32,170 bases of DNA from Acetobacteraceae bacterium (GTDB lineage Bacteria; Pseudomonadota; Alphaproteobacteria; Acetobacterales; Acetobacteraceae): assembly GCA_027330745.1 (NCBI GenBank), contig DAHWDR010000257.1, forward strand, positions 1 through 32,170, given 5' to 3'. A program made the position numbers and the translations under genes. Positions 472-14,234 of this stretch are shown piece by piece (position 1 is the stretch's first letter; each line of letters opens with the position of its first letter). The notes under the pieces were generated by a model that was given only the letters and a program-made list of their open reading frames with translations, did not search any database and had not been told where the DNA came from.

Positions 472-2102
<1,631 letters not shown>

Positions 2103-2106
<4 letters not shown>

Positions 2107-3308
2107 GCAGGATCCTTCGGCGCGAAGCGCGACGGCGCGAATGGCGCCATCTCCGGCGCGATCCTACCCGACAGGATGTGATCGGCAACCAGCGTCGCGG
2201 TGATCGGCGTCAGCAGGATGCCATTGCGATGATGCCCGGTGGCATAGACCAGGCCGGGCAGCGTGCCCGGACCCAACAGCGGCGCGTCGTCGCGTGAGCC
2301 GGGGCGGAATCCGACCCAGGTTTCGGCGATGGGCAGGTCCTCGATCCCCGGCAGCGCGCGCCAGGCGCCGTCCAGCAGGGACAGCAGGCCACCGGCGGTC
2401 AGGTGCGGGTCGAACCCTTTTTCCTCCACCGTGGCGCCCACGATCAGGCGGCCATCGGCGCGCGGCACCAGATAGGCGTGCGGCGCCCAGACCACATGGC
2501 GCAGCAGTGGCGCCGCCGGGTCCATCGACAGGGCCAGCATCTGGCCTTTGACCGGGCGCACCGGCGGGCGGGCGGCTTGCGGCATCCCGGGGAGTTCGGC
2601 CGACCAGGCGCCCGCCGCCAGGACCACCGTCTCCGCCTTCACGCACGCCTCACCCGCGATCACGCCGGTGACGCGCCCGCCGGTCAGGTCGAGCCCGGTC
2701 ACCGCGCAGTGTTCCCGCAGGACCCCTCCGGCTTCGCGCAAGGCGGCGGCCAGCGCCGCGCCCAGCAGGCGGTTGTCGGCCTGATGATCGGCGGCGCTGA
2801 ACACCGCGCCGGCCAGCGAGGGCGTCAACCGCGGCTCCCGCGCCAGGGCCTGGCGCGGCGTCAGCCATTCCAGCGGAATGCCGTGGTCGCGCTGGAATTC
2901 AAAGGTGAAGCGCAGGCTGGCCAGGTCGTCGCGATTCAGGGCCAGCATCAGCGTGCCCTCCTGGCGCAGCCCGACTGGCAGGCCGGAGGCGGTCTCCAAC
3001 GCGGCGGCGAAGTCCGGCCACAGCGCCAGGCTGGCGCGGTTGAGCGCGGACAGCGCGGCTTCCCCGGGCTCGGTTTCCACCCCCGCGGCCAGCATCCCGG
3101 CGGCGGCCCAGGACGCGCCGCGCCCGGCCTGGCCGCGTTCGAAGACGGTCACCGGAACGCCGCGCTGCGCGAGGCGCCAGGCGATGGCAAGGCCGATAAC
3201 GCCGCCGCCGATGACGGCAACGGAGGAGGGGGAGGGCGGAATGGCGGGCCTCGCGACGCAACGCGCCGAGATTACCCCGGCCGCCGGCGCGGGGGAACCG
3301 GCCGTCAG
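2103..3308 (-). CDS. thiO: glycine oxidase ThiO (FAD-dependent); the 5' boundary is uncertain (CTG 3308 or ATT 3242)
   Basis: The sequence VAVIGGGVIGLAIAWRLAQRG (Rossmann GxGxxG, from about 3221) through ATGHHRNGILLTPITA is ThiO-like. I found no in-frame ATG/GTG/TTG from the Rossmann motif back to at least 3600, checking codon by codon. The 573-aa ORF in the track overlaps lpxC and is rejected. Confidence 0.85.
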
Positions 3309-4234
3309 GCGGCGGCGGAAACCGGCATGGCCTGTGCGGCGAACAGCGCGTGCAGCAGACGGTTGTTCAGGGCATGGCCGGAGCGGTGTGCCACGAACCG
3401 GCCACGGATCGGCGCGCCCGCCAGCGCCAGATCGCCCACCGCATCCAGCAGCTTGTGGCGCGCGAACTCGCGGTCCATGCGCAACCCGCCCGGGTTCAGC
3501 ACGCGCGCGCCATCCACTACCACCGCGTTCGCCAGGCTGCCGCCCAGCGCCAGGCCGGCGGCCTGCAAGGCGGCGACATCCTCGGCCATGGCGAAGGTGC
3601 GCGCGGCGGCCAGTTCGCGGCGGAACGATGCCGGGGTCAGCCGAACCTCCAGGCTTTGGCGGCCGATCGCGGCCGCGGGAAAATCGATCGAAAGCCGCAT
3701 CTCCAGCCCCTCGGCGCGCGGCGCGGGGCGGAGTTCGGCCCAGGCGTCCCCGTCTTCGACCCGGACCACCTGGCGTGGCACGAGGAAGCGGCGCGGTGCG
3801 TCCTGCGCGGCAATTCCCGCGCATTCGATCAGGAACACGAACGGAGCCGCCGAACCATCCAGGATCGGCACTTCCGGCCCGTCCAGGCTGATCAGCGCGT
3901 TGTCAATGCCAAGCCCCGACAGCGCGGCCAGCAGATGCTCCACCGTGCTCACGCGGATATCGGGCTCGCCCGGCAGGGCGAGGGTGGTGGCCAGCCGCGC
4001 GTCGGCGACGTAATCGAAGCGGGCCGGGATGTCGCGCCCCAGATCGGTGCGGCGGAAAACGATGCCGCGCCCGGCTGGCGCCGGGGCCAGGGTCAGCGCG
4101 ACGGTGGACCCGGAATGGACCCCGGTGCCGACGCAGCCGATCGCGGTCTTCAGGCTGTGCTGACGCGCCTCGGCCGGCACCTCGATCAGGCGCGGGGGGG
4201 GCAGCGTGTCGGTGGCGATGGCCAAGGCGTCCAT
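3305..4234 (-). CDS. lpxC: UDP-3-O-acyl-N-acetylglucosamine deacetylase
   Basis: 309-aa ORF with GVGVHSG-like (GTGVHSGS), TVEHLLAAL, PILDGSA, and HKLLD.VGDL.L.G motifs. It sits directly after ftsZ, as in other dcw clusters. A GGGA Shine-Dalgarno-like motif lies 6-7 nt upstream of the ATG. Confidence 0.95.
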   Translation of the reverse strand: MDALAIATDTLPPPRLIEVPAEARQHSLKTAIGCVGTGVHSGSTVALTLAPAPAGRGIVFRRTDLGRDIPARFDYVADARLATTLALPGEPDIRVSTVEHLLAALSGLGIDNALISLDGPEVPILDGSAAPFVFLIECAGIAAQDAPRRFLVPRQVVRVEDGDAWAELRPAPRAEGLEMRLSIDFPAAAIGRQSLEVRLTPASFRRELAAARTFAMAEDVAALQAAGLALGGSLANAVVVDGARVLNPGGLRMDREFARHKLLDAVGDLALAGAPIRGRFVAHRSGHALNNRLLHALFAAQAMPVSAAA

Positions 4235-4270
4235 GCTGTTCCCGGTCCCTTATTGGGGCGCCGCTCTGCT

Positions 4271-4308
4271 GCAACGCAAAACGGGCGCTCTCTAGGTAGA
4301 GATCGCCC
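4271..4308 (-). terminator. hairpin plus short U-tract between ftsZ and lpxC (possible partial intrinsic terminator or attenuator)
   Basis: The minus strand reads GGGCGATCTCTACCTAGAGAGCGCCC: 5 bp, one mismatch, then 5 bp, with a 4-nt loop. It is followed by GTTTTGCGTT and lies 35 nt downstream of the ftsZ stop. Confidence 0.4.
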
Positions 4309-4342
4309 GCTTCCTGCGCCAGTCACTCTTTATTTCCCCGTG

Positions 4343-5941
4343 TTACCGGGTAACTGATTGACCGGGATGGGTTTTTTCTGCCTCTCCGGTGTAGGATTGC
4401 TGGCGCCGGAGGAAGGTCGGGATTTCGAGTCCCTCATCCTCCCCCACCACCGGACGCACCTCCGGGCGGTCCATCGGGTGTCCACCCGTGTGCCCACCTG
4501 CGTGCCCAGCGGGGCGGCCGACGGGGCGTACCGTGTCCGACGGGTCCTCGGCATAGACACCAAGGCCGGGTTCGTGGCGCGGCTCGGTTGGCGGGGCGGC
4601 CACCCCGCTTCCGCCGCGGCGCGAGAAAATGCCCGTCACGGTGCCGAAGATGCTGGTGCGTTCCGGCTGCGTCGGCCGTGCCGGCGCGGCGCGCGGGCGG
4701 GCCGGGGCCGAGGGGATGAAGCCCGGCCGCGGCGCCTCCGTGGTCTCGGCCCGGCCCAGGGAGGGTGCAACGGCGGATGACGCGATCGGCGGTACCGACG
4801 GACGCAGCGGTGCGGCGTGACCCGGGGCGGCTTCGGCGACCGGTGCGGCGGACATGTCCACCGCCGTCAGAACGGGCCCCGCGGCGCGCCCGGTGGCCGG
4901 TGGCAGATCCTGCGCCACGCCGCCATTCACCGCGACCAGTTTTGGCCGGTCCTGGCTGCTCGCGAGCGGCACGTCGATGCCGGTCGCAATCACCGAGACG
5001 CGGATTCGCCCCGTCAGGCTGGGGTCGGTGGCGGAGCCGAAGATGATCTCGGCGTCCGGGTCCACTTCCTGGGCGACGCGCTTAGCGGCGTGCTCGACCT
5101 CGAACAAGGTCAGATCGTCGCCGCCGGTGATGTTGATCAGCAAGCCCCGCGCGCCGGCCATGGAGGTGTCTTCCAGCAGCGGGTTGTTGATCGCCGCCTC
5201 GGCCGCCAGCACCGCGCGATTATCGCCCTCGGCGGTGCCGGTGCCCATCATCGCCTTGCCCATCTCGCGCATCACGGTGCGGATGTCGGCGAAATCCAGG
5301 TTGATCTGCCCCGGCGCCATCATCAGGTCGGTGACGCTACGGACGCCTTCGTACAGCACCTGGTCGGCCATTTTGAAGGCCTCCTTCCAGGTGGTACGGT
5401 CATTTGCCATACGGAACAGATTCTGGTTCGGGATGATGATCAGGGTATCGACGTGTTCCTGCAGCTCGGCGATGCCTTCCTCGGCGGCGCGGGCGCGGCG
5501 GCGGCCCTCGAAATCGAACGGCTTGGTGACGACGCCGATGGTCAGGATGCCGCGCTCGCGCGCCATCCGCGCGATCACCGGGGCGGCCCCGGTGCCGGTG
5601 CCGCCGCCCATGCCGGCGGTGACGAACACCATGTGGCTGCCGTCCAGATGGCGGTACAATTCGTCGGCCGCTTCCTCGGCCGCGGCGCGCCCCACCTCGG
5701 GCCGGGCGCCGGCGCCGAGGCCCTGGGTGATATGCGGGCCGAGCTGGATCCGCCGCGTGGCACGGGAATGGATCAGCTGCTGCGCGTCCGTGTTCGCCAC
5801 CACGAACTCGACGCCCTGCAGGTCGGCGGCGATCATGTTATCGACGGCGTTGGTGCCGCCGCCGCCGACGCCGATCACCGAGATGCGCGGGGTGAAATCC
5901 GTGTGCACCGGCTGATCGGTCTTTTTCATGTGCAGAACCAT
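4343..5941 (-). CDS. ftsZ: cell division GTPase FtsZ
   Basis: Contains [10 protein letters not shown], the tubulin signature [11 protein letters not shown], a long Pro/Ala-rich linker and the conserved C-terminal peptide [11 protein letters not shown] chose the ATG at 5941 because GGAGGGG lies 9 nt upstream. An ATG at 5929 is the alternative. The upstream part of ORF 4343..6067 runs into the palindromic element. Confidence 0.95.
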
Positions 5942-6007
5942 AGCAGGCGACCCCTCCGTCGATTCGTTGACTTGAACGCCATGCCCGCGATTCGGGGCAA
6001 GCGGCTT

Positions 6008-6156
6008 GTTGGCTAGGTAGTGTCTCGGTTTGAACGTCGGCGCCGGCCCGCACCCCCACCCGGCCACCCAACGTCAGTATATTGGCATTGGGTGGCCGGG
6101 TGGGGGTGCGGGCCGGCGCCGACTTGCTGTTCAAACCGAGACACTACCGTTGGCTT
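6008..6156. mobile_element. MITE-like non-autonomous palindromic element (133 bp, 6016..6148) flanked by a GTTGGCT direct duplication
   Basis: The left arm (6016..6071, 56 nt) is the perfect reverse complement of the right arm (6088..6148) except for a 5-nt insertion (TTGCT) in the right arm. The loop is 16 nt and AT-rich (cgtcagtatattggca). GTTGGCT occurs at 6008..6014 and 6149..6155, next to both ends. No coding capacity. Confidence 0.6.
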
Positions 6157-6158
6157 TG

Positions 6159-7460
6159 TCACAGTCGTTCCTTCACGAACGCCACCACGCGGGCGAGCCA
6201 GCCCCCGCGCGGCAACGGGTCGAGATCGATATCCGCGAGCCGCCGTCCGTTGCCGGCCGCCCAGGACAGCAGCCCCGCGGCGGTGGCGAAGGCGGGCCCG
6301 GCAGCGGCATCGGGCAGTCCGCGCAGGCTGGACGGCCGGCCGATCCGCACCTGCTTGCCGAGAATCTCGGCCGCCAGTTCGCGCACCCCGCCGAGTTGGC
6401 AGGCGCCCCCGGTCAACACGACCCGGTTGCCCGCGGCGCGCGTCAGGCCGGAGCTTTCCAGACGTTGCTTTACCAGCTCGAACGTCTCCTCCATGCGCGG
6501 GCGGATCACGCGCACCAGGTCGCTGCGCGGCACGCGCGCCAAATGATGGTCTTCCTCGCCGATCAGCGGCACCGGCAGCATCTCGTGATGATCGTCCGGG
6601 CAGCCGGAGGCGTTGCCGAACAGCGCCTTCAACCGTTCCGCGTGCGCCACCGGCGTGGACAGTAGCCGCGCCAGATCGTTGGTGACATGCACTCCGCCGA
6701 TCGGCAGCTGCGCGGTGTGCAGCAGCTGACCCTCGGCGAACACCGCCATCCCGGTGGTGCCGCCGCCCATGTCGATCACGGTGGCTCCCAGTTCGCGCTC
6801 GTCCTCCACCAGCACGGCAAGCCCCGCGGCCATCGGCGCGGAGACCAGCTCGGCCACGTCCAGATCGCAGCGCGCCATGCACGCGCCGAGCGAACGCAGC
6901 GCCCCCGACGCCGCATCGATGATGTGCAGCCGCGCCGTCAGGGTGGAGCAGAACAGACCGCGCGGATCGGCGACCCCTTCGGTCTCATCGGCCGAGAAGG
7001 TCAGAGGCAGGGCGTGGATCGTCTCGCGCCCCTCGCCTTCGGCGCGGGCGCGGCCTTCGGACATGATGCGGCGGATATCCGCCTCCTCCACCGCGCGACC
7101 GCCGACATGCCACTGCACATTCAGCAGCCGGCTTTCCGGCTGACCGCAGCTTAGATTCACGGTCACGCTGCGCAGCCGCGTATCGGCCATGTCCTCGGCC
7201 TGGCCGACCGCGGCGCGGATCGCGCGCTCGGCCTCGTCCAGATCGACGATGCCGCCGCCGCGCACGCCCTTGCCGCGATGCCAGCCGAAACCGGTGGCGC
7301 GCAGCCGGCCGTCGGCTTCCTGCCGGCCGATCAGGCAGACCACCTTGGTGGTGCCGATATCCAGGATTCCGATCGGGCCGGAGCGTCCACCGCGTCCGCG
7401 CGGGGCGTCCTCCGCACCGGGTTCCTGCGCCACCAGCAGGCGCGGGGCCATCTGGTTCAT
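6159..7460 (-). CDS. ftsA: cell division protein FtsA (actin-like ATPase)
   Basis: Contains ILDIGTTKVVCLIG, VIDMGGGTT, VLTGGACQLGGVRELA and a C-terminal amphipathic helix. The ATG at 7460 overlaps the ftsQ stop (ATGA). The upstream part of the 679-aa ORF overlaps ftsQ and is rejected. Confidence 0.95.
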   Translation of the reverse strand: MNQMAPRLLVAQEPGAEDAPRGRGGRSGPIGILDIGTTKVVCLIGRQEADGRLRATGFGWHRGKGVRGGGIVDLDEAERAIRAAVGQAEDMADTRLRSVTVNLSCGQPESRLLNVQWHVGGRAVEEADIRRIMSEGRARAEGEGRETIHALPLTFSADETEGVADPRGLFCSTLTARLHIIDAASGALRSLGACMARCDLDVAELVSAPMAAGLAVLVEDERELGATVIDMGGGTTGMAVFAEGQLLHTAQLPIGGVHVTNDLARLLSTPVAHAERLKALFGNASGCPDDHHEMLPVPLIGEEDHHLARVPRSDLVRVIRPRMEETFELVKQRLESSGLTRAAGNRVVLTGGACQLGGVRELAAEILGKQVRIGRPSSLRGLPDAAAGPAFATAAGLLSWAAGNGRRLADIDLDPLPRGGWLARVVAFVKERL

Positions 7461-8320
7461 GTCGGTTTCTTTCCGGTGGGAGGGGGCGGCACCGCGGCCG
7501 CGATCGGACGCAGCACCAGCATCGATGGCAGGCGCAGATCGATGAACCGCAGCGGCCGGTCGAGCAGCGCGAACTGCGCTTGCAGCTGCGCCAGCCGCGC
7601 GATCGCGCGCACCGCGTGCCCGCCCGGCAGGCGGACCGTCATGCCGGATTTCATCATCAGATCCCAGCGCCGGGAATCCACCCGCACCGCCGCGGCCACG
7701 CGCGGCGCCAGTTCCGGCTGCGCGTTCAGCGCGTCCAGCAGCCGCGCCGCGGCACGTGGCGCGCCCGGTCCCACAACCAGGGGCAGGGCGCGGAAGTCGC
7801 GCGCGTTGCGGTCGGCGACGGTGTCCCCGTCGCGGTCGATCAGGCGGAATTTGCCTTGATCCTGCCAGATCGCGAATGGCCGCCGCTCGATCAGACGCAC
7901 CACGATCGTGTCGGGCAGGCGCCGCTCCACGGTGGCGTGCTGCACCCAGGACAGGCGCTCGATGCGCGCGGCCACGGCGCGGATCGGCACCGCCAGGATC
8001 GGGGTGCCGCGATGCACGTCCATCGCGTCGCGCAGCACCGGCTCGGGGGTATTGGCGCGGCCTTCGATGACGATGTGGCGCACCTGCATCCCGGCCCGCG
8101 CGGCATCGCCGGCCAGTGCCAGATGCAGCCGGTCCAGCGTGCTGCCCGGCGTGCCGGAGCGCAGCAGCGCGGTCAGTGCCAGCAGCACCAATCCGCATCC
8201 GGCGGCGACCGCGGCGGGACGGATCAGCCAGCGCTGCCGACGCAACAGCAGCCGCAGCCGCGCCGGCCGGTCCTGGATGGAATTGCGCGGCCCGCGCGCC
8301 TTGTTCACCCCGCGCGGCAT
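7457..8320 (-). CDS. ftsQ: cell division protein FtsQ
   Basis: 287 aa with a basic N-terminus, one transmembrane segment (AAVAAGCGLVLLALTALL), a POTRA-like block (VRHIVIEGRANT...) and ...RRWDL... It lies between ddl and ftsA. The ATG at 8320 overlaps the ddl 3' end by 16 nt. Confidence 0.85.
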   Translation of the reverse strand: MPRGVNKARGPRNSIQDRPARLRLLLRRQRWLIRPAAVAAGCGLVLLALTALLRSGTPGSTLDRLHLALAGDAARAGMQVRHIVIEGRANTPEPVLRDAMDVHRGTPILAVPIRAVAARIERLSWVQHATVERRLPDTIVVRLIERRPFAIWQDQGKFRLIDRDGDTVADRNARDFRALPLVVGPGAPRAAARLLDALNAQPELAPRVAAAVRVDSRRWDLMMKSGMTVRLPGGHAVRAIARLAQLQAQFALLDRPLRFIDLRLPSMLVLRPIAAAVPPPPTGKKPT

Positions 8321-9228
8321 GTCGCCTGCTCCACCATCCAGGTGCACAGCGCCGGAAACGCGATGCCGCGATGCGCCGCCTGCTCGGGCAGCAATGACGT
8401 GCGGGTCAGGCCGGGCTGGGTGTTCACCTCCAGCAGCACCAGCCGCCCCGGTTCGCCCTGGGTATCGTCGTAGCGGAAATCCGCCCGGCTGGCGCCGCGG
8501 CACCCCAGCGCGCGATGCGCCGCGAGCGCCATTTCCAGCGCGCGCGCATAGGTATCGCGATGCACGCCGGCGGGGATGACGTGGCGCGAGCCGCCGGGGG
8601 CATATTTGGAATCGTAGTCGTAGAACGCGCCTGCTTCGGCGATGATCTCGGTGACCGCCAGCGGGTCTTCGCCCATCACCGCCACGGTCAGTTCGCGGCC
8701 GGGGATATATTCTTCCACCAGCGCGCGCGCTCCGTAGCGCCAGGCACGCGCGATGGCGGCGCGGCGATTGTCGCCGGCGCGCACGATTTCAACGCCGACC
8801 GAGGAGCCTTCGTTGGCGGGCTTGATGACGTACGGCAGCGGCAGCGGATCGGCTTCGGCCAGCGCGTCGCGGTCGATCAGCTTGCCGTGCGGCACGGTCA
8901 ACCCGGCGGCGGCGAACAGCGTCTTGGCCGCGGTCTTGTCCATCGCCAGCGCCGAGGCGCGCACGCCTGAATGGGTATACGGGACGCCCAGCCAGTCGAG
9001 CACCCCCTGGATCGAACCGTCTTCTCCGAAACGACCATGCAGCGCGTTGAACACCACGTCCGGCGCCGGGGTCAGTGCGGCGATCAAGGCGGGGAGATCG
9101 GGGCCGACCTCGATCGGAGTGACCTCGAACCCGGCATCCGCCAGCGCGGCGATCACCTCGGTGCCGGAGGCGAGACTGACCTCGCGCTCCGCCGAGACGC
9201 CGCCATACAACACCGCGACCCGGGTCAT
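8305..9228 (-). CDS. ddl: D-alanine--D-alanine ligase
   Basis: 307-aa ORF with VLYGGVSAEREVSL, NALHGRFGEDGSIQG, KP..EGSSVG and an ATP-grasp C-terminal half (LLEVNTQPG). The ATG overlaps the murB stop (ATGA). Confidence 0.95.
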   Translation of the reverse strand: MTRVAVLYGGVSAEREVSLASGTEVIAALADAGFEVTPIEVGPDLPALIAALTPAPDVVFNALHGRFGEDGSIQGVLDWLGVPYTHSGVRASALAMDKTAAKTLFAAAGLTVPHGKLIDRDALAEADPLPLPYVIKPANEGSSVGVEIVRAGDNRRAAIARAWRYGARALVEEYIPGRELTVAVMGEDPLAVTEIIAEAGAFYDYDSKYAPGGSRHVIPAGVHRDTYARALEMALAAHRALGCRGASRADFRYDDTQGEPGRLVLLEVNTQPGLTRTSLLPEQAAHRGIAFPALCTWMVEQATCRAG

Positions 9229-10433
9229 GGCGTGGTCTCCCCGGTTGGATCGGAGCCGGAGCCCCCCGTCCCGGAGCGCCCCGTCCCGGAGCCCCCCGTC
9301 ATGGCTGGGCTTGACCCAGCCATCCGCGCACCGGCCGCGCCCGCCGCGACGCTGGCGCGCCCGGATAAGGGCGTCCGCGAGTCCCCCGCCGCCGCATCCG
9401 TCGGCGCGCGACCCGAGGTGGGCGCGGTCCCCGGGTGGATGGCCGGGTCAAGCCCGGCCATGACGGGTGTTTGCACGGCGGGCGTGTCCGCGGCGGGTGT
9501 GTGCGCGACCGGGGACGGCGCAGCGCCGTGCTGGCCCAGGCGGCGGATTTCCCATTCCAGCCGGACGCCGGTCGCGGCGAACACGCGCCGGCGCAGCTCT
9601 TCGCCCAGACCTTCCAGGTCGGCCGCCGTCGCGGCCCCGGTGTTGATCAGGAAATTGCAGTGCTTCTCGGACACCATCGCGCCGCCGCGGGTCAGGCCGC
9701 GGCAGCCGGCGGCATCGATCAGCTCCCACGCCTTCTGGTGCGGCGGGTTGCGGAACGTGGACCCGCCGGTGCGCGCGCGGACCGGCTGGCTCGCTTCCCG
9801 CGCCGCCCGGATCTCGGTCATTCGCGCCGCGATCGCCGCCGTTGTCCCGGGGCGCGCCCGCAGCCGCGCGCGGACCACCGCCGCGCCATGCGGCAGCCGC
9901 GCGTGGCGATAGGCGAAGGCCAGATCCGCCGCCGCCAGTCGCACCAGCGCGCCGGAGCGCGTGACCATCTCGGCCCAGTCCAGCACCGAGGCGATGTCGC
10001 CGCCATACGCGCCGGCGTTCATCGCCACCGCCCCGCCGATCGTCCCCGGCACGCCGCACAGGAACTCCAGTCCCGCCAGACCGGCCGCCGCCGCGTGTTC
10101 CGCCACCGTCGCGTCCAGTGCGCCGGCGCCGGCCACCACCCCGTCCGCCTCGATCGCGACGGCCGTGAATCCGCGTGCCAGCCGCACCGTCACCCCGGGA
10201 ATGCCGCCGTCGCGGAGGATCAGGTTGGAGCAAGCACCCAGCACATGCACCGGGATCTCGGGCGCCAGCGTGCCCAGGAACGCGCCCAGATCGGCCGCGT
10301 CGGCCGGGCGGATCAACACCTCGGCCGGCCCGCCGACGCGGAACCAGGCCGTCCCGGCCAGAGGCGCGTCGTGCTGCACCCGCCCGCGCAATGGCGGCAG
10401 ATCGAAACCCGCGACGCGCGCGGCGGCCATCAT
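9225..10433 (-). CDS. murB: UDP-N-acetylenolpyruvoylglucosamine reductase MurB with a repeat-derived C-terminal extension of about 100 aa
   Basis: The MurB core runs from FRVGGPAE through [18 protein letters not shown] and [10 protein letters not shown], ending near 9534. The reading frame then continues with no stop through 9533..9228 (low-complexity sequence plus REP palindromes) to a TGA that overlaps the ddl ATG. Confidence 0.9.
9256..9300. repeat. 3 x 15-nt tandem repeat (CCGGAGC[C/G]CCCCGTC)
   Basis: Units are at 9256..9270, 9271..9285 and 9286..9300, directly abutting REP palindrome P1. In the murB frame they read [15 protein letters not shown]. Confidence 0.85.
9301..9323. repeat. 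REP-like 23-nt palindrome P1 (ATGGCTGGG-CTTGA-CCCAGCCAT)
   Basis: 9-bp perfect stem with a 5-nt loop. With its flanks it reads GTCATGGCTGGGCTTGACCCAGCCATCCGC. Translations (VMAGLDPAI / ..MAGSSPAMT..) match the peptide signatures I recall from alphaproteobacterial REP-derived spurious ORFs. Confidence 0.7.
9439..9461. repeat. REP-like 23-nt palindrome P2 (ATGGCCGGG-TCAAG-CCCGGCCAT), inverted relative to P1
   Basis: Same family as P1 in the opposite orientation; its loop TCAAG is the reverse complement of CTTGA. It lies 115 nt from P1. The + strand frame reads [11 protein letters not shown] and the murB frame reads [10 protein letters not shown]. Confidence 0.7.
9462..9506. repeat. 3 x 15-nt imperfect tandem repeat (G[A/G]CGGG[T/C]GT[T/G]T[G/C]C[A/G]C)
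   Basis: Units are at 9462..9476, 9477..9491 and 9492..9506, directly abutting P2 on its outer side. This mirrors the arrangement at P1. The murB frame reads [15 protein letters not shown]. Confidence 0.7.
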
Positions 10434-11905
10434 GGCAGCGCTCCCGTGCGTCGCGCGCCGCCCGGGCCAGGGGCATTGCCCGGCGCTTTACCCACTTGGG
10501 CCTGCAACGCGGCCAGCTCAGCCGGCAGCGTCGCGGCCCATTGCGTGATGTTCCCCGCGCCCAGGCAAACCACGTAATCGCCCGGGCGCGCGATCGCGAA
10601 CACCATCTCGGCCAACCGCGCCGGCGATGACAGTGGCACCACCGAGCGATGCCCGCGCGCGCGCAAGCCCTCCACCAGCGCGTCGCGGTTCACGCCCGGG
10701 ATCGGCGCTTCGCCGGCTGGATACACATCCGCCACGATCACCGTCCCGGCGTCGTTCATGCACGCGCAGAACTCGGGGAACAGCGATTGCAGACGAGAAA
10801 ACCGGTGCGGCTGCACCACCGCGACCACGTTCTTCGCCCCCGCCTGACGCGCGGCTTTCAGGACCGCGGCGATCTCCACCGGATGGTGGCCGTAATCGTC
10901 GATCACGGTGATCCCGCCGGCCTCGCCGGTGCGGGTGAAGCGGCGCTTCACGCCGGCAAAGCCGGCAAACGCGCTGCGCAGCGTGTCGGCGTCGATCATC
11001 ATCTCGACGCCCACGGCCACCGCGGCCAGCGCGTTCTGCACGTTGTGGCTGCCCAGCATCGGCAGGCGGAATGGACCCATCTGGCGGGTGCGGTTGCGGA
11101 TCCGGTCCGTCACCGTCACGTGGAACGTGGCGCCCCGGCTGTCCGCGCGCAGTTGTTCCGCCCGCACATCGGCCTGCGGGCTGAAGCCGTAGGTGATGAT
11201 GCGCCGGTCCGCCAGGCGCGGGATCATCTGCTGCACGCCGGGATGGTCGATGCACAGGACCGCGAAACCGTAGAACGGGATGTTGGCGACGAACTGATCG
11301 TAGCCCGCCACCATCGCCTCGGCCGTGCCCCAATGGTCCAGATGCTCGGGGTCCATGTTGGTGACCACGGCGATCACGGCGGGCAGGCGGAGGAAACTGC
11401 CGTCGCTTTCGTCGGCCTCCACCACCATCCATTCGCCCTGGCCCATGCGGGTGTTGGAGCCGTAGGCGTTGATGATCCCGCCATTGATGACGGTGGGATC
11501 GAGCTTGGCCGCTTCCAGCACTGCGGCGATCAGCGACGTGGTAGTGGTCTTGCCATGGGTGCCGCCGACCGCGATCGACCATTTCAGGCGCATCAGCTCG
11601 GCCAGCATTTCGGCCCGGCGCACCACCGGCAGGAAGCGGGCGCGGGCGGCGGCCACTTCCGGGTTGTCGCGCTTCACGGCTGAGGAGATCACCACCACCT
11701 GCGCGTCGCCCAGATGGGCCGCGTCATGGCCGATGGAGACCGCGATCCCGGCATCGCGCAGCCGGCGCACATTGGTGGAATCGGCGATATCGCTGCCCTG
11801 GACGCGGTATCCCAGCGTGTGCAGCACCTCGGCGATGCCTGACATGCCGATGCCGCCGATGCCGACGAAATGGATCGTGCCGATGGAAAGCGGCAGCGCC
11901 CTCAT
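10430..11905 (-). CDS. murC: UDP-N-acetylmuramate--L-alanine ligase
   Basis: Contains [28 protein letters not shown] and DDYGHHP. The ATG at 11905 overlaps the murG stop (ATGA), and the stop overlaps the murB ATG (ATGA). Confidence 0.95.
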
Positions 11906-13116
11906 GGCACGCTCTCCCCGGCGCCGACGCGCAGCACCAGGTCGGCCAGGCGCTCGGCCGCGTCGGCGCGCGACAGGGCGAACGCGGCGGCGGCGGCGCG
12001 GGTGCGGCGGTCGGGATCGGACAGCCACGCGGTCAACGCGCGCGACAGCGCAAGCGCGTCCAGCCCGGCCTGATCCAGACGCTCGGCTGCGCCGGCCGCG
12101 ACCAGCGGGATGGTGTTGGCGCGCTGGTGGTCGTCGATCGCGCCCGGCAACGGAACCAGCAGCGACGGGCGCCCGACCGTGGCGATCTCGGCGATGGTCG
12201 AGGCGCCGGCGCGCGCCACCACCAGCTGCGTATTCGCCAGAAGCGCGCCGATATCGGCGAAGAACGGTGCCAGGGTCGCGCGCACGCCGGCTGCGTCATA
12301 GGCGGCGCGCACCCGGTCGAGATCCTCGGCGCGGCATTGCTGGGTCACCGCGAGGCGCGCCCGCAGCGGCGCCGCCAGCAGTGCCACCGCTGCCGGCACC
12401 AGGTCCGCGAACACCCGCGCCCCCAGCGATCCGCCCAGCACCAGCAGCGACAGCGGCGGGCCGGGGACGTAGCGCGCGCCGGCATGAGCCAGGATTCCGG
12501 CGCGCACCGGATTGCCGGTCACGACGACGGCAACCTGCGCCGGCACCAGGGCGGTATCGGCGAAGCTCAGTGCCAGACAGGCGGCGCGACGGACCAGCAG
12601 GCGGTTCGCCCGCCCCAGCACCGCGTTCTGTTCGTGCAACACCACCCTGGGACGCGGGCGCGAGAGGAACGCGCCGAGCGCCGGCGCCACCGACGGGTAG
12701 CCGCCGAATCCCACCACCGCCTGCGCGTCGAGGCCGCGCAGCAGGCCGCGCGCGCGCCAGCCGCCCCAGGTCAGCGCGCAGGCAGCCGCGACGCCACGCC
12801 GCAGGCCGCGTCCGGCGATCCCGGCACCGGGGAGCACATGCACATCCAGCCCGGCGAAGGCGGCGCTGGCCGCCGCCCGCGTATCGGTCATCAGCACCAC
12901 CGGTTCGCCGCGCGCGGCCAGCGCGGCGGCCAGCGCCTCGGCCGGGAACAGATGCCCGCCGGTCCCGCCGGCGGCGATCACCACCGGCCTGCCGCAGCTT
13001 CGCGCCTGCGGTTGCGGAAGCCGGCGCGGGCGCGGACCGCGCGCGCCGAAATCCGATGCCTGCGCGCCCGCCAGCGGCGGGGAGAAGCGTTCGGCCATGA
13101 CGGTGGGGCCGCTCAT
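11902..13116 (-). CDS. murG: undecaprenyldiphospho-muramoylpentapeptide beta-N-acetylglucosaminyltransferase MurG
   Basis: Contains [26 protein letters not shown], and the ...[11 protein letters not shown]...G.P..LVP motif. The ATG at 13116 overlaps the ftsW stop (ATGA), and the 44 codons before the G-loop have coding-like GC3. The alternative GTG at 12984/12981 would give a canonical protein of about 360 aa. Confidence 0.9.
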
Positions 13117-14234
13117 AGCGATTCCCCCCGCACCCGCCGCCGGCTCAGCGCCAGCAACATGCCGACCTCCAACGCCGAGGCGAGCGCCGAGGACCCGCCA
13201 TAGGAAATGAACGGCAGCGTCATCCCCTTGGTCGGGATCATCGCCAGCGCCGAGGCCATGTTCACGAACGCCTGCAACCCGAACGCCGCGAGCAGTCCGG
13301 TGCAGGCCAGCACGATGAACGGGTCGGTCTCGTGGAGCACCCGCCACATCCCGCGCAGCACGATGAAGGCGAACACCAGCGGGATCAGCGCGGTGAAGAT
13401 CAGGCCGATCTCCTCGCCGGCGACGGCAAAGATGAAATCGGCGTGGGCGTCGGGCAGCTGATCCTTGATCCGCCCTTCGCCCAGGCCGCGGCCCAGCAGG
13501 CCGCCATGGCCGAACGCTTCCAGCGCGGTCTTGATCTGATAGGTGTGCGGGCCGTGCGGGTGCAGGAACTCGGCGACGCGCAGGCGCACATGGCCGAACA
13601 TCAAATAGGCGGCGATCGCCAGCCCCACCATCGCCAGCAGCGCCAGCGCCACCGCGGCCAGGTTCAGCCCATCCACAAAGAACTGCACGAACAGCACCGC
13701 GGTGATTACCGCGGCCATGCCCACATCGGGCTGTTCCTTCAGCAGGAACATGATCACCAGCCAGATCGCGCAGGCGATCACGCCGCCCGGGAAGCGCGGA
13801 TTGCGCCGCCGCTCCGCCAGCAGCCAGGCGGCTACCACGGCGAAGCACGGTTTGAGGAACTCGCTGGGTTGCACCGCGAATCCGGGGAAGCGAATCCAGC
13901 GCCGCGCGCCGAGTACCTCCATGCCGATTGCCAGGGTCGCGGCGGTCAGGATCAGCGCCACGATCCCGCCCACCAGTGCCAGCCGCCGCACATCGCGCGG
14001 CGTCAGCATCGAGATCGCGAGCATGGCAACCAGCCCGGCCAGCAGGAACACCACCTGCTTGGCCAGCAGGTGATAGCGCGGATCGCCCAACCGGGCGGCC
14101 GCGGACGGCGCGGCGGCCAGCGCCAGCAGATAGCCGAAGCCGAACAGCACCCCCACCGCGCCGAGCGAGGCGTGATCGACGGTCCACCACCAGCGGCCCA
14201 GCACGGAATTGTCGGCACGCGAGACGGTCATCAC
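13113..14234 (-). CDS. ftsW: peptidoglycan glycosyltransferase FtsW (SEDS family)
   Basis: Polytopic membrane protein with QPSEF.K, PDAHADFIFAV.GEE.G and LPFISYGGSS motifs. The start is either GTG 14234 (GTGA overlap with the murD stop) or ATG 14231. Confidence 0.93.
   Translation of the reverse strand: MMTVSRADNSVLGRWWWTVDHASLGAVGVLFGFGYLLALAAAPSAAARLGDPRYHLLAKQVVFLLAGLVAMLAISMLTPRDVRRLALVGGIVALILTAATLAIGMEVLGARRWIRFPGFAVQPSEFLKPCFAVVAAWLLAERRRNPRFPGGVIACAIWLVIMFLLKEQPDVGMAAVITAVLFVQFFVDGLNLAAVALALLAMVGLAIAAYLMFGHVRLRVAEFLHPHGPHTYQIKTALEAFGHGGLLGRGLGEGRIKDQLPDAHADFIFAVAGEEIGLIFTALIPLVFAFIVLRGMWRVLHETDPFIVLACTGLLAAFGLQAFVNMASALAMIPTKGMTLPFISYGGSSALASALEVGMLLALSRRRVRGESL

Follow-up and report, generated by a model that had tools for sequence, protein, structure and literature searches.

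The stretch analyzed here (hereafter the window) comprises 32,170 nucleotides (nt) of an Acetobacteraceae bacterium (assembly GCA_027330745.1, contig DAHWDR010000257.1, positions 1–32,170, forward strand) and carries, within its dcw cluster, the cell-wall genes murB and ddl (Table 1). This study concerns the C-terminal tail of MurB, a repeat-built appendage that holds two inverted copies of a repetitive extragenic palindrome (REP) and that is present in some strains of one natural population and absent from others. The Pfam domains FAD_binding_4 and MurB_C fall within MurB residues 38–298, MurB_C ending at residue 298, and the last conserved residue is G300 of EWEIRRLG, whose codon occupies 9534..9536. 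A first-pass annotation, made from the sequence alone, had described a MurB tail of about 100 residues built of repeats, with the ATGA overlap to ddl kept, and had placed the end of conserved sequence at about 9534 with another 102 codons open; both descriptions are accurate.

Two exact 23-nt palindromes, P1 (ATGGCTGGGCTTGACCCAGCCAT) and P2 (ATGGCCGGGTCAAGCCCGGCCAT), organize the tail. They stand in opposite orientation with 115 nt between them, exactly where the first-pass annotation had put them, share the same type of stem with reversed loops (CTTGA vs. TCAAG), and form a pattern for which 100 shuffles yielded 0 matches. Relative to P2, P1 carries a compensatory, two-sided change of a stem pair from C-G to T-A, so that the pairing of its hairpin stays perfect; as a variant it is rare, being matched exactly 3 times among 185,579 species genomes. 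A search of the 32-kb window for further copies of the palindrome unit returned only the two in the murB tail, and a scan of the window for other palindromic repeat families found none. Scans against Rfam and for promoter-like sites came back empty, and a scan of 8900..9800 found none of the terminator-like sites, with a T-run after a GC-rich hairpin, expected of an intrinsic terminator or attenuator.

The 15-nt tandem arrays that had been annotated as three units on either side of the palindromes proved unequal. The array beside P1 is a clean 3 x 15 nt, and the second reaches only 2.1 copies, its supposed third unit being mostly the CGTC-tagged flank of P2; the symmetric layout holds only loosely, the two arrays being unrelated in sequence. 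Tandem duplication at the CGTC tag was considered as a footprint of REP mobilization and rejected: the best tandem identity beside 91 other REP tags from the loci retrieved had a mean of 0.50, vs. 0.50 at random positions, and only 1 of the 91 reached 0.8. Given this lack of enrichment, the arrays of the window are best read as local in-frame slippage, which at this position would be tolerated in multiples of three only.

Table 1. Features of the murB–ddl junction, in window coordinates
Feature	Position	Strand	Remarks
murB coding sequence	9225..10433	minus	402 codons (402 aa), open reading frame uninterrupted
Conserved MurB core	residues 1–300		FAD_binding_4 and MurB_C; core ends at 9534
MurB C-terminal tail	9228..9533	minus	102 codons, residues 301–402; rich in A, G, P, T, S
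Allele-specific block	9241..9527	minus	287 nt replacing 20 nt (GCGGCCCCGCCGCTTGCCGT) of the empty allele
Weaker 15-nt tandem repeat	9476..9507		Next to the tagged side of P2; TRF 2.1 copies, score 50
REP P2	9433..9467 (palindrome 9439..9461)	minus	CCCGTC, ATGGCCGGG-CTTGA-CCCGGCCAT, CCACCC; consensus CGTC-3 unit
Spacer between palindromes P1 and P2	9324..9438		115 nt; single-copy word depth
REP P1	9297..9326 (palindrome 9301..9323)	plus	CGTC-3 unit, orientation opposite to P2, CCG tail
3 x 15-nt tandem repeat	9256..9300		CCGGAGCSCCCCGTC; abuts P1 and takes in its CGTC tag; TRF score 83, 93% matches
ddl Shine-Dalgarno-like GGAGA	9236..9240	minus	8 nt 5′ of the ddl ATG, just outside the block
ATGA, ddl start codon overlapping murB stop	9225..9228	minus
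ddl coding sequence	8305..9228	minus	D-Ala-D-Ala ligase, 307 aa

CGTC-tagged REPs of families 3/4 are defined (Di Nocera, De Gregorio & Rocco, 2013, BMC Genomics 14:522, PMC3733652) by an unpaired CGTC tag, for which TGTC and CCTC are admitted as variants, a 9-bp stem starting A-T/T-A, a 5-nt loop, and a tail that fits CCA. In the murB tail, CGTC lies directly 5′ of ATGGC... in both units (9462..9465, minus strand, in P2; 9297..9300, plus strand, in P1); the arms, ATGGCCGGG/CCCGGCCAT in P2 and ATGGCTGGG/CCCAGCCAT in P1, pair perfectly over 9 bp with A-T/T-A first; the loop is 5 nt, CTTGA (TCAAG in the opposite orientation); and the tail is CCA in P2 and, with one mismatch, CCG in P1. The tags point outward, the pair thus being head-to-head. 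Head-to-head dimers with spacers of 20–100 bp predominate among CGTC REPs (PMC3733652), a range that the 115-nt spacer of the window slightly exceeds; 28 dimers with spacers of 95–125 nt were found in other alphaproteobacteria, 27 of these 28 spacers beginning with C and most with CCA. The peptides agree as well. The window tail reads MAGSSPAMT in the murB frame and RVKPGHD in a plus-strand frame, and it and the tails of relatives match the CGTC-3 read-through peptides in Additional file 3 of PMC3733652. CGTC-3 copies inside Rhodopseudomonas palustris genes give, among others, RVKPAGD in DNA polymerase I (PolA), PSWPGLSRPST...RVKPGHD in DnaE2, and MAGPSPAMT in DnaJ, and slightly more than 10% of intragenic copies sit at the ends of open reading frames (ORFs; PMC3733652). 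The peptides that the first-pass annotation had attributed to alphaproteobacterial REP-type repeats are the same as those listed for this family in R. palustris. By every sequence criterion tested, the murB-tail doublet is a head-to-head dimer of CGTC-3 REPs.

The unit is widely distributed. The word depth of P2 in the metagenomes, summed over the community, is 1,900–9,600, vs. 5–25 for single-copy DNA of the organism, and dozens of metagenome contigs break at the edges of P2. Units with outward CGTC tags and inward CCA tails are seen in many other alphaproteobacteria, and an exact 35-mer of the unit occurs in Acetobacteraceae metagenome-assembled genomes (MAGs), including one that carries one of the closest MurB relatives among the species genomes, where the closest MurB among the matches listed is 78% identical. 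Acetobacteraceae were reported to be without CGTC REPs in a 2013 survey (PMC3733652), and the present case is therefore a small extension of the range of these elements. The spacer, by comparison, is unique: no second copy of a 22-mer taken from it turned up in the 185,579 species genomes, and the spacers of the 28 other long-spacer dimers do not resemble it. A multi-copy miniature inverted-repeat transposable element (MITE) or REP doublet forming hairpins (REPIN) was thus rejected as an identity for the doublet; with a spacer that is unique and at single-copy depth, the doublet is no replicating unit of either kind.

Other arrangements of the unit were encountered elsewhere. A community contig in run X21 joins the two REP arms (joint 9318->9433) via a 25-nt spacer, CGGCCGTCTGCGCACGGACAGGTGG, and represents a compact head-to-head CGTC-3 dimer, including a P1-like arm, at another locus. 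Six long-spacer CGTC-3 dimers from different soil MAGs (L050, L052, L053, L054, L066, L074) have a related spacer of ~105 nt, CCACGCCGCTCTGCTTCGAAGGCGAGTCGGAACTCGTCC..., in both orientations, which suggests a true multi-copy composite element there, unlike the unique spacer of the window. In an uncultured alphaproteobacterial MAG (L079:2586-3083), six CGTC-3 units stand in tandem with an 84-nt period and are followed by an inverted unit, a clustered arrangement that has been called rare for CGTC REPs (PMC3733652).

The block that holds these repeats is polymorphic within the species. The MurB of the window belongs to a 90%-identity cluster of five members, two of 402 residues (the window and an independent ENA assembly, L045) and three of 313 residues that end in RRLGQHAAPPLAVETTP at the stop. 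Same-species contigs that lack the block encode a 313-residue MurB whose C-terminal end is QHAAPPLAVETTP. In a five-locus alignment with essentially identical flanks, the block is present in the window and L045 and absent from L042, L043, and L044; the filled allele is, on balance, 267 nt (89 codons) longer and retains the original stop. The right flank common to the alleles starts with GGAGACCACGCCATGA, made up of the ddl Shine-Dalgarno motif and then the overlap, and the GGAGA motif is the same in the filled and empty alleles. An in-frame stop near 9530, against which the first-pass annotation had cautioned, is present in neither assembly, and the tail is not conserved in other MurB proteins, even within the species. 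As with Rickettsia palindromic elements (RPEs), a repeat lies inside an ORF that has homologues without it, and the frame is kept with no stop introduced.

The two alleles are found together in nature. In the mine-drainage metagenomes of one study, the empty allele was scored by a contig that skips from 9244 to 9527 with 15 other letters between. Word depths of the empty and filled alleles were, respectively, 16.1 and 9.0 in run X1, 12.4 and 6.3 in X2, 0 and 5.2 in X3, 13.2 and 3.1 in X4, and 11.7 and 0 in X21; filled and empty alleles thus coexist in single samples (X1, X2, X4). Over 7.2 kb of the dcw cluster (window 6225..13433 vs. L042–L045), five haplotypes differ at about 65 sites, and the alleles occur on mosaic backgrounds of single-nucleotide polymorphisms (SNPs). 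At 9795..9849, for instance, the window groups with the empty-allele L042, and the filled-allele L045 groups with L043 and L044. Such a mosaic fits a recombining population; consensus contigs mixed from several strains could give the same pattern.

No coding signature is seen in the base composition of the tail, whose GC at the first, second, and third codon positions is 0.72/0.79/0.85; the corresponding values are 0.77/0.58/0.90 for the MurB core and 0.73/0.52/0.85 for ddl. At the ~78% GC of the block, an open frame is no surprise, composition-matched shuffles being stop-free in a given frame with probability 0.40; with one-in-three frame preservation, ~13% of such random insertions would look alike. 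The two other sense frames are each closed by one TGA, and both of these are borne by the REPs: one unit has its TGA in the loop (CT-TGA-CC), the other at its tag (CA-TGA-CG), in both cases outside the murB frame. In an AlphaFold model built from a 36-sequence alignment, residues 296–402 have a predicted local distance difference test score (pLDDT) of 33–47 and no secondary structure, and parts of the core reach 85–95. The MurB tail is thus probably disordered; the whole model is mediocre (mean pLDDT 60), and so the prediction is supportive only. That the tail has been recruited from repeat DNA as a functional part of the protein, for example as a disordered linker for MurB localization or for interaction with a cell-wall enzyme, is highly improbable. 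A frame open for 102 codons, two arrays with a 15-nt (5-codon) period, and the recurrence of repeat-derived tails in relatives, always in frame, speak for such a role, but the tail lacks both conservation within the species and the GC signature of coding sequence, is predicted to be disordered, and has counterparts in relatives whose source repeats are unrelated and are read in other frames. When the tail alone was searched against 5.8 billion proteins, no match was returned, even to its own protein, probably owing to composition filters, and the outcome is uninformative.

Comparison with relatives indicates the direction of change. The best 120 MurB relatives are mostly 305–315 residues long, and those at 84–86% identity have 305–315 residues; together with the same-species 313-residue MurB, they bear out the earlier statement that the repeat block sits upstream of the murB stop with the murB–ddl overlap unbroken. 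Overlap of the murB stop and the ddl start (ATGA, or an ATG/GTG start directly followed by A) is the norm in Acetobacteraceae/Rhodospirillales relatives, whose typical tail is xPxGKPEVVA, with a GGAG motif. Outgroups at 83–84% identity have short tails of 10–15 residues (RHAAPPRSAP in P0003, RPAAPPMPVSEGGRA in P0004, HAGPPAPISGEPLP in P0002), which share AAPP/GPP motifs with the empty allele, AAPP itself being common to P0003 (RHAAPP), P0004 (RPAAPP), and the empty allele. These short tails and the shared motif make the short form ancestral and the block a gain. The opposite polarity, with the filled allele ancestral and the 313-residue allele derived from it by deletion, has very little probability: although the alleles differ by a replacement and no clean insertion, deletions between repeats are common, and P0006 vs. 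P0007 resembles such a deletion between repeats in a related lineage, the outgroups speak for the short form, the tail is without coding signature, and the spacer was found in no relative.

About 17 of the best 120 MurB matches have extended tails of repeat peptides, and DNA was retrieved for eight of them. Three (L046, L047, L089) carry compact head-to-head CGTC-3 dimers with spacers of ~20–24 nt, read in a frame that differs from that of the window (PSWPGL..RPS...DGRVKPGHD). Four others (L048, L049, L090, L092) carry a second palindrome family, CCCCTCCC...GGGAGGGG (unit CCCCTCCCCTTGCGGGAGGGG; peptides PLPLREGVGGRG and PSRKGRGG), and L091 a third, CCCTCTCCC...GGGAGAGGG (unit GGCCCTCTCCCGGAGGGAGAGGG; peptides PLPEGEG and PSPSGRG). 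These two families come from related Acetobacteraceae-like lineages, and the G-rich arms of their repeats give GGAGG-like sequence directly 5′ of the ddl ATG, and L092 vs. L048 looks like the partial loss of a dimer. Across all three families, the called murB ends 4 nt into ddl in each of the eight relatives. Taken with the extragenic dimers of L003 described below, these sequences show that palindromic repeats colonize dcw gene junctions repeatedly in this clade and, at murB–ddl, are found absorbed into the MurB tail with coupling intact.

Other repeat and tail arrangements occur in the same clade. In an uncultured Rhodospirillales bacterium with 75% MurB identity (L003), CGTC-3 dimers or clusters are extragenic at murC-murB (L003:2862-2951) and ddl-ftsQ (L003:4900-5030), where they separate genes that overlap in the genome of the window. 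A different C-terminal extension of ~70 residues, with the shared end ...ASFNTLTPESVQ, is found in P0032, P0074, and P0082 (384–405 residues); it is not REP-like and may be a conserved tail of one subclade.

We consider it likely that the block is near-neutral repeat DNA that was absorbed into murB after passing a filter set by murB–ddl coupling. The anatomy of the tail, its presence/absence polymorphism, the repeat family, the non-coding composition, the predicted disorder, and the overlap kept in the window and in eight relatives are shown by the analysis; the steps that we infer are the arrival of the block, the translation of the tail, and selection for coupling. In one lineage of the mine-drainage population, a head-to-head CGTC-3 dimer would have entered the variable linker of ~10–13 codons that separates the MurB core from the ribosome-binding site of ddl. 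The dimer was perhaps short-spacered at first, as in relatives, and would later have been enlarged by DNA between its partners and by slippage of the 15-nt units. Ribosomes would read through to the original TGA inside the ATGA, since the block has no stop in the murB frame and adds a whole number of codons. MurB would gain ~89 extra residues, disordered and of low complexity, and ddl would keep both its Shine-Dalgarno motif and its termination–reinitiation coupling. Only insertions that spare this coupling would survive, which is the most likely reason for the in-frame, stop-free state, and the block would be tolerated most likely thanks to its place in a variable linker, where it leaves the coupling intact. 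The first-pass annotation had set a translated appendage against an insertion sparing the coupling; both descriptions stand, as parts of one scenario and not as alternatives.

An imperfect palindrome, ACCACGCCATGACCCGGGTCGCGGTGTTGT, spans the ddl start codon itself (9207..9236, 79% complementary). It could hide the ddl AUG until a ribosome translating murB arrives; against such sequestration, its fold energy is no better than that of shuffles (z = +0.35), and the region is also under coding constraint.

Several observations weigh against the absorption of a repeat block as set out above. The insertion is not clean, 20 nt of the empty allele having been replaced with no target-site duplication, which makes the import of a diverged allele by homologous recombination possible. 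The overlap is kept in nine of nine cases, counting the window and the eight relatives; this is suggestive and not a test, as the relatives were picked for long MurB ORFs and the sample is thereby biased toward in-frame cases. Small metatranscriptomes of the same study yielded no contig mapped to murB or ddl and are uninformative. The left junction (9468..9526) is backed by two independent metagenome assemblies with identical DNA, the window and L045, and by these only: no Logan contig covers it in the runs inspected, and the index returned no run with its words. Finally, a role at the RNA level would likewise be in keeping with the strong predicted structure of the tail RNA and with the compensatory change in the P1 stem.

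The gap at the left junction bears on whether the filled allele is an assembly artifact, either a chimeric join caused by the high-copy, 35-nt P2, whose word depth in the thousands and many broken contigs invite such an error, or the loss of a stop or frameshift from sequence rich in repeats. We give this only a slender chance. The two independent assemblies come from different samples and are identical across the block yet ~30 SNPs apart in the flanks. In three runs, individual Logan contigs extend from ddl through the right junction, P1, and the spacer as far as the edge of P2, with 0–1 mismatches, and the 59 nt on the murB side are unique and also end in P2. Contig names moreover indicate a word size of 141, which easily spans a 35-nt repeat.

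The RNA structure supplies the main rival to an absorbed repeat, in which the stem-loop of the REP dimer in the polycistronic dcw mRNA tunes the ratio of murB to ddl, and the protein tail is a by-product. The stem-loop could shield the upstream mRNA from 3′ exonucleases, slow ribosomes before the coupled ddl start, or make a processing site. The 316-nt tail RNA is predicted to fold at -207.6 kcal/mol (z = -5.2) with the two REPs paired with each other, and either REP by itself gives a hairpin of -18 to -20 kcal/mol; the perfect pairing of P1 and the presence of three different palindrome families at the same spot in relatives point the same way. However, any inverted repeat yields a strong z-score, translating ribosomes would unwind the fold, the spacer is unique, and the locus offers neither a terminator-like T-run nor an Rfam match. 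The absence of the block from co-occurring, often more abundant strains of the same species weakens the case further, and we regard an RNA-level role as unlikely.

Absorbed repeat DNA of this kind has some wider bearing. In one natural population, the empty and filled alleles coexist as a before-and-after pair. For REP insertions in essential genes such pairs are rare, and they are useful for inferring how REP elements arrive. The case also extends the CGTC-3 family to Acetobacteraceae, and it carries a warning for annotation: at ~75% genomic GC, repeat DNA is silently absorbed into ORFs, and MurB lengths of 330–400 residues in databases reflect repeat tails and no new domains. The nine surviving ATGA overlaps suggest that translational coupling in the dcw operon constrains where and how repeats settle. 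A bolder proposition, which we hold to be doubtful and put forward tentatively, is that, in Acetobacteraceae, several palindromic repeat families unrelated to one another settle preferentially in the linker 5′ of the murB–ddl ATGA, with the coupling of the essential ddl gene as a sieve by which selfish repeat DNA is made into new in-frame protein tails. If true, it would offer a natural, segregating system for C-terminal sequence arising from mobile non-coding DNA, in which the strength of the operon-coupling constraint on repeat insertion becomes measurable.

Among known systems, the doublet resembles REPINs mobilized by REP-associated tyrosine transposases (RAYTs; Bertels & Rainey, 2011; PMC3116915, PMC3337134) in having two inverted REPs able to fold into one long hairpin, and the relatives L047 and L089 have the classic compact form (~20–24-nt spacer) at the murB tail. 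It differs in that doublet and spacer are single copy, with none of the shared spacing or spacer sequence that marks a replicating unit. CGTC REPs have no association with transposase genes in Table 1 of Di Nocera (2013; PMC3733652), and the RAYT search suggested at first is for this reason probably the wrong test. As in de novo C-termini derived from non-coding DNA (PMC4494051), non-coding sequence has joined the 3′ end of an ORF and a disordered tail is the predicted result; in the window, unlike there, this occurred by insertion upstream of a retained stop, with no stop loss or shift.

As a palindromic element lying in frame inside a gene, the doublet belongs with the RPEs and with the intragenic REPs of PMC3733652. 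As summarized in PMC10969869, RPEs are inserted into protein-coding genes without breaking the frame (Ogata et al., 2000); RPE-4 is a CGTC-4 REP, RPE-6 is a CGTC-1 REP, and murB of Rickettsia conorii (RC0332) itself holds a CGTC-1 dimer at residues 19–56 (PMC3733652, Additional file 3). Common to RPEs and the window is palindromic repeat DNA that is in frame in essential housekeeping genes and is read, or in the window would be read, as extra peptide. The window differs in family (CGTC-3) and in site, a C-terminal linker beside an overlapping start vs. an internal or N-terminal position, and what it allows to be examined as a constraint is translational coupling, where for RPEs it is the protein fold. 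With the CGTC-3 REPs themselves (PMC3733652) the window shares the tag, the 9-bp AT-start stem, the 5-nt loop, the CCA tail, the outward-tag dimer, and the MAGxSPAMT and RVKPGHD peptides. It departs from them in its Acetobacteraceae host, in a unique 115-nt spacer vs. the typical 20–100 bp, in a REP-associated coding stretch of 89–102 residues vs. 20–30 for typical dimers and a quoted maximum of 43–82, in its flanking 15-nt tandem repeats, and in having been caught segregating. The case is thus a natural example of a known phenomenon, intragenic REPs, and no new system; it leaves knowledge of MurB, Ddl, or REPs unchanged. Its own features are the host family, the size of the block, the unique long spacer, the repeats of pentapeptide period, the segregation of the two alleles, and the retained ATGA.

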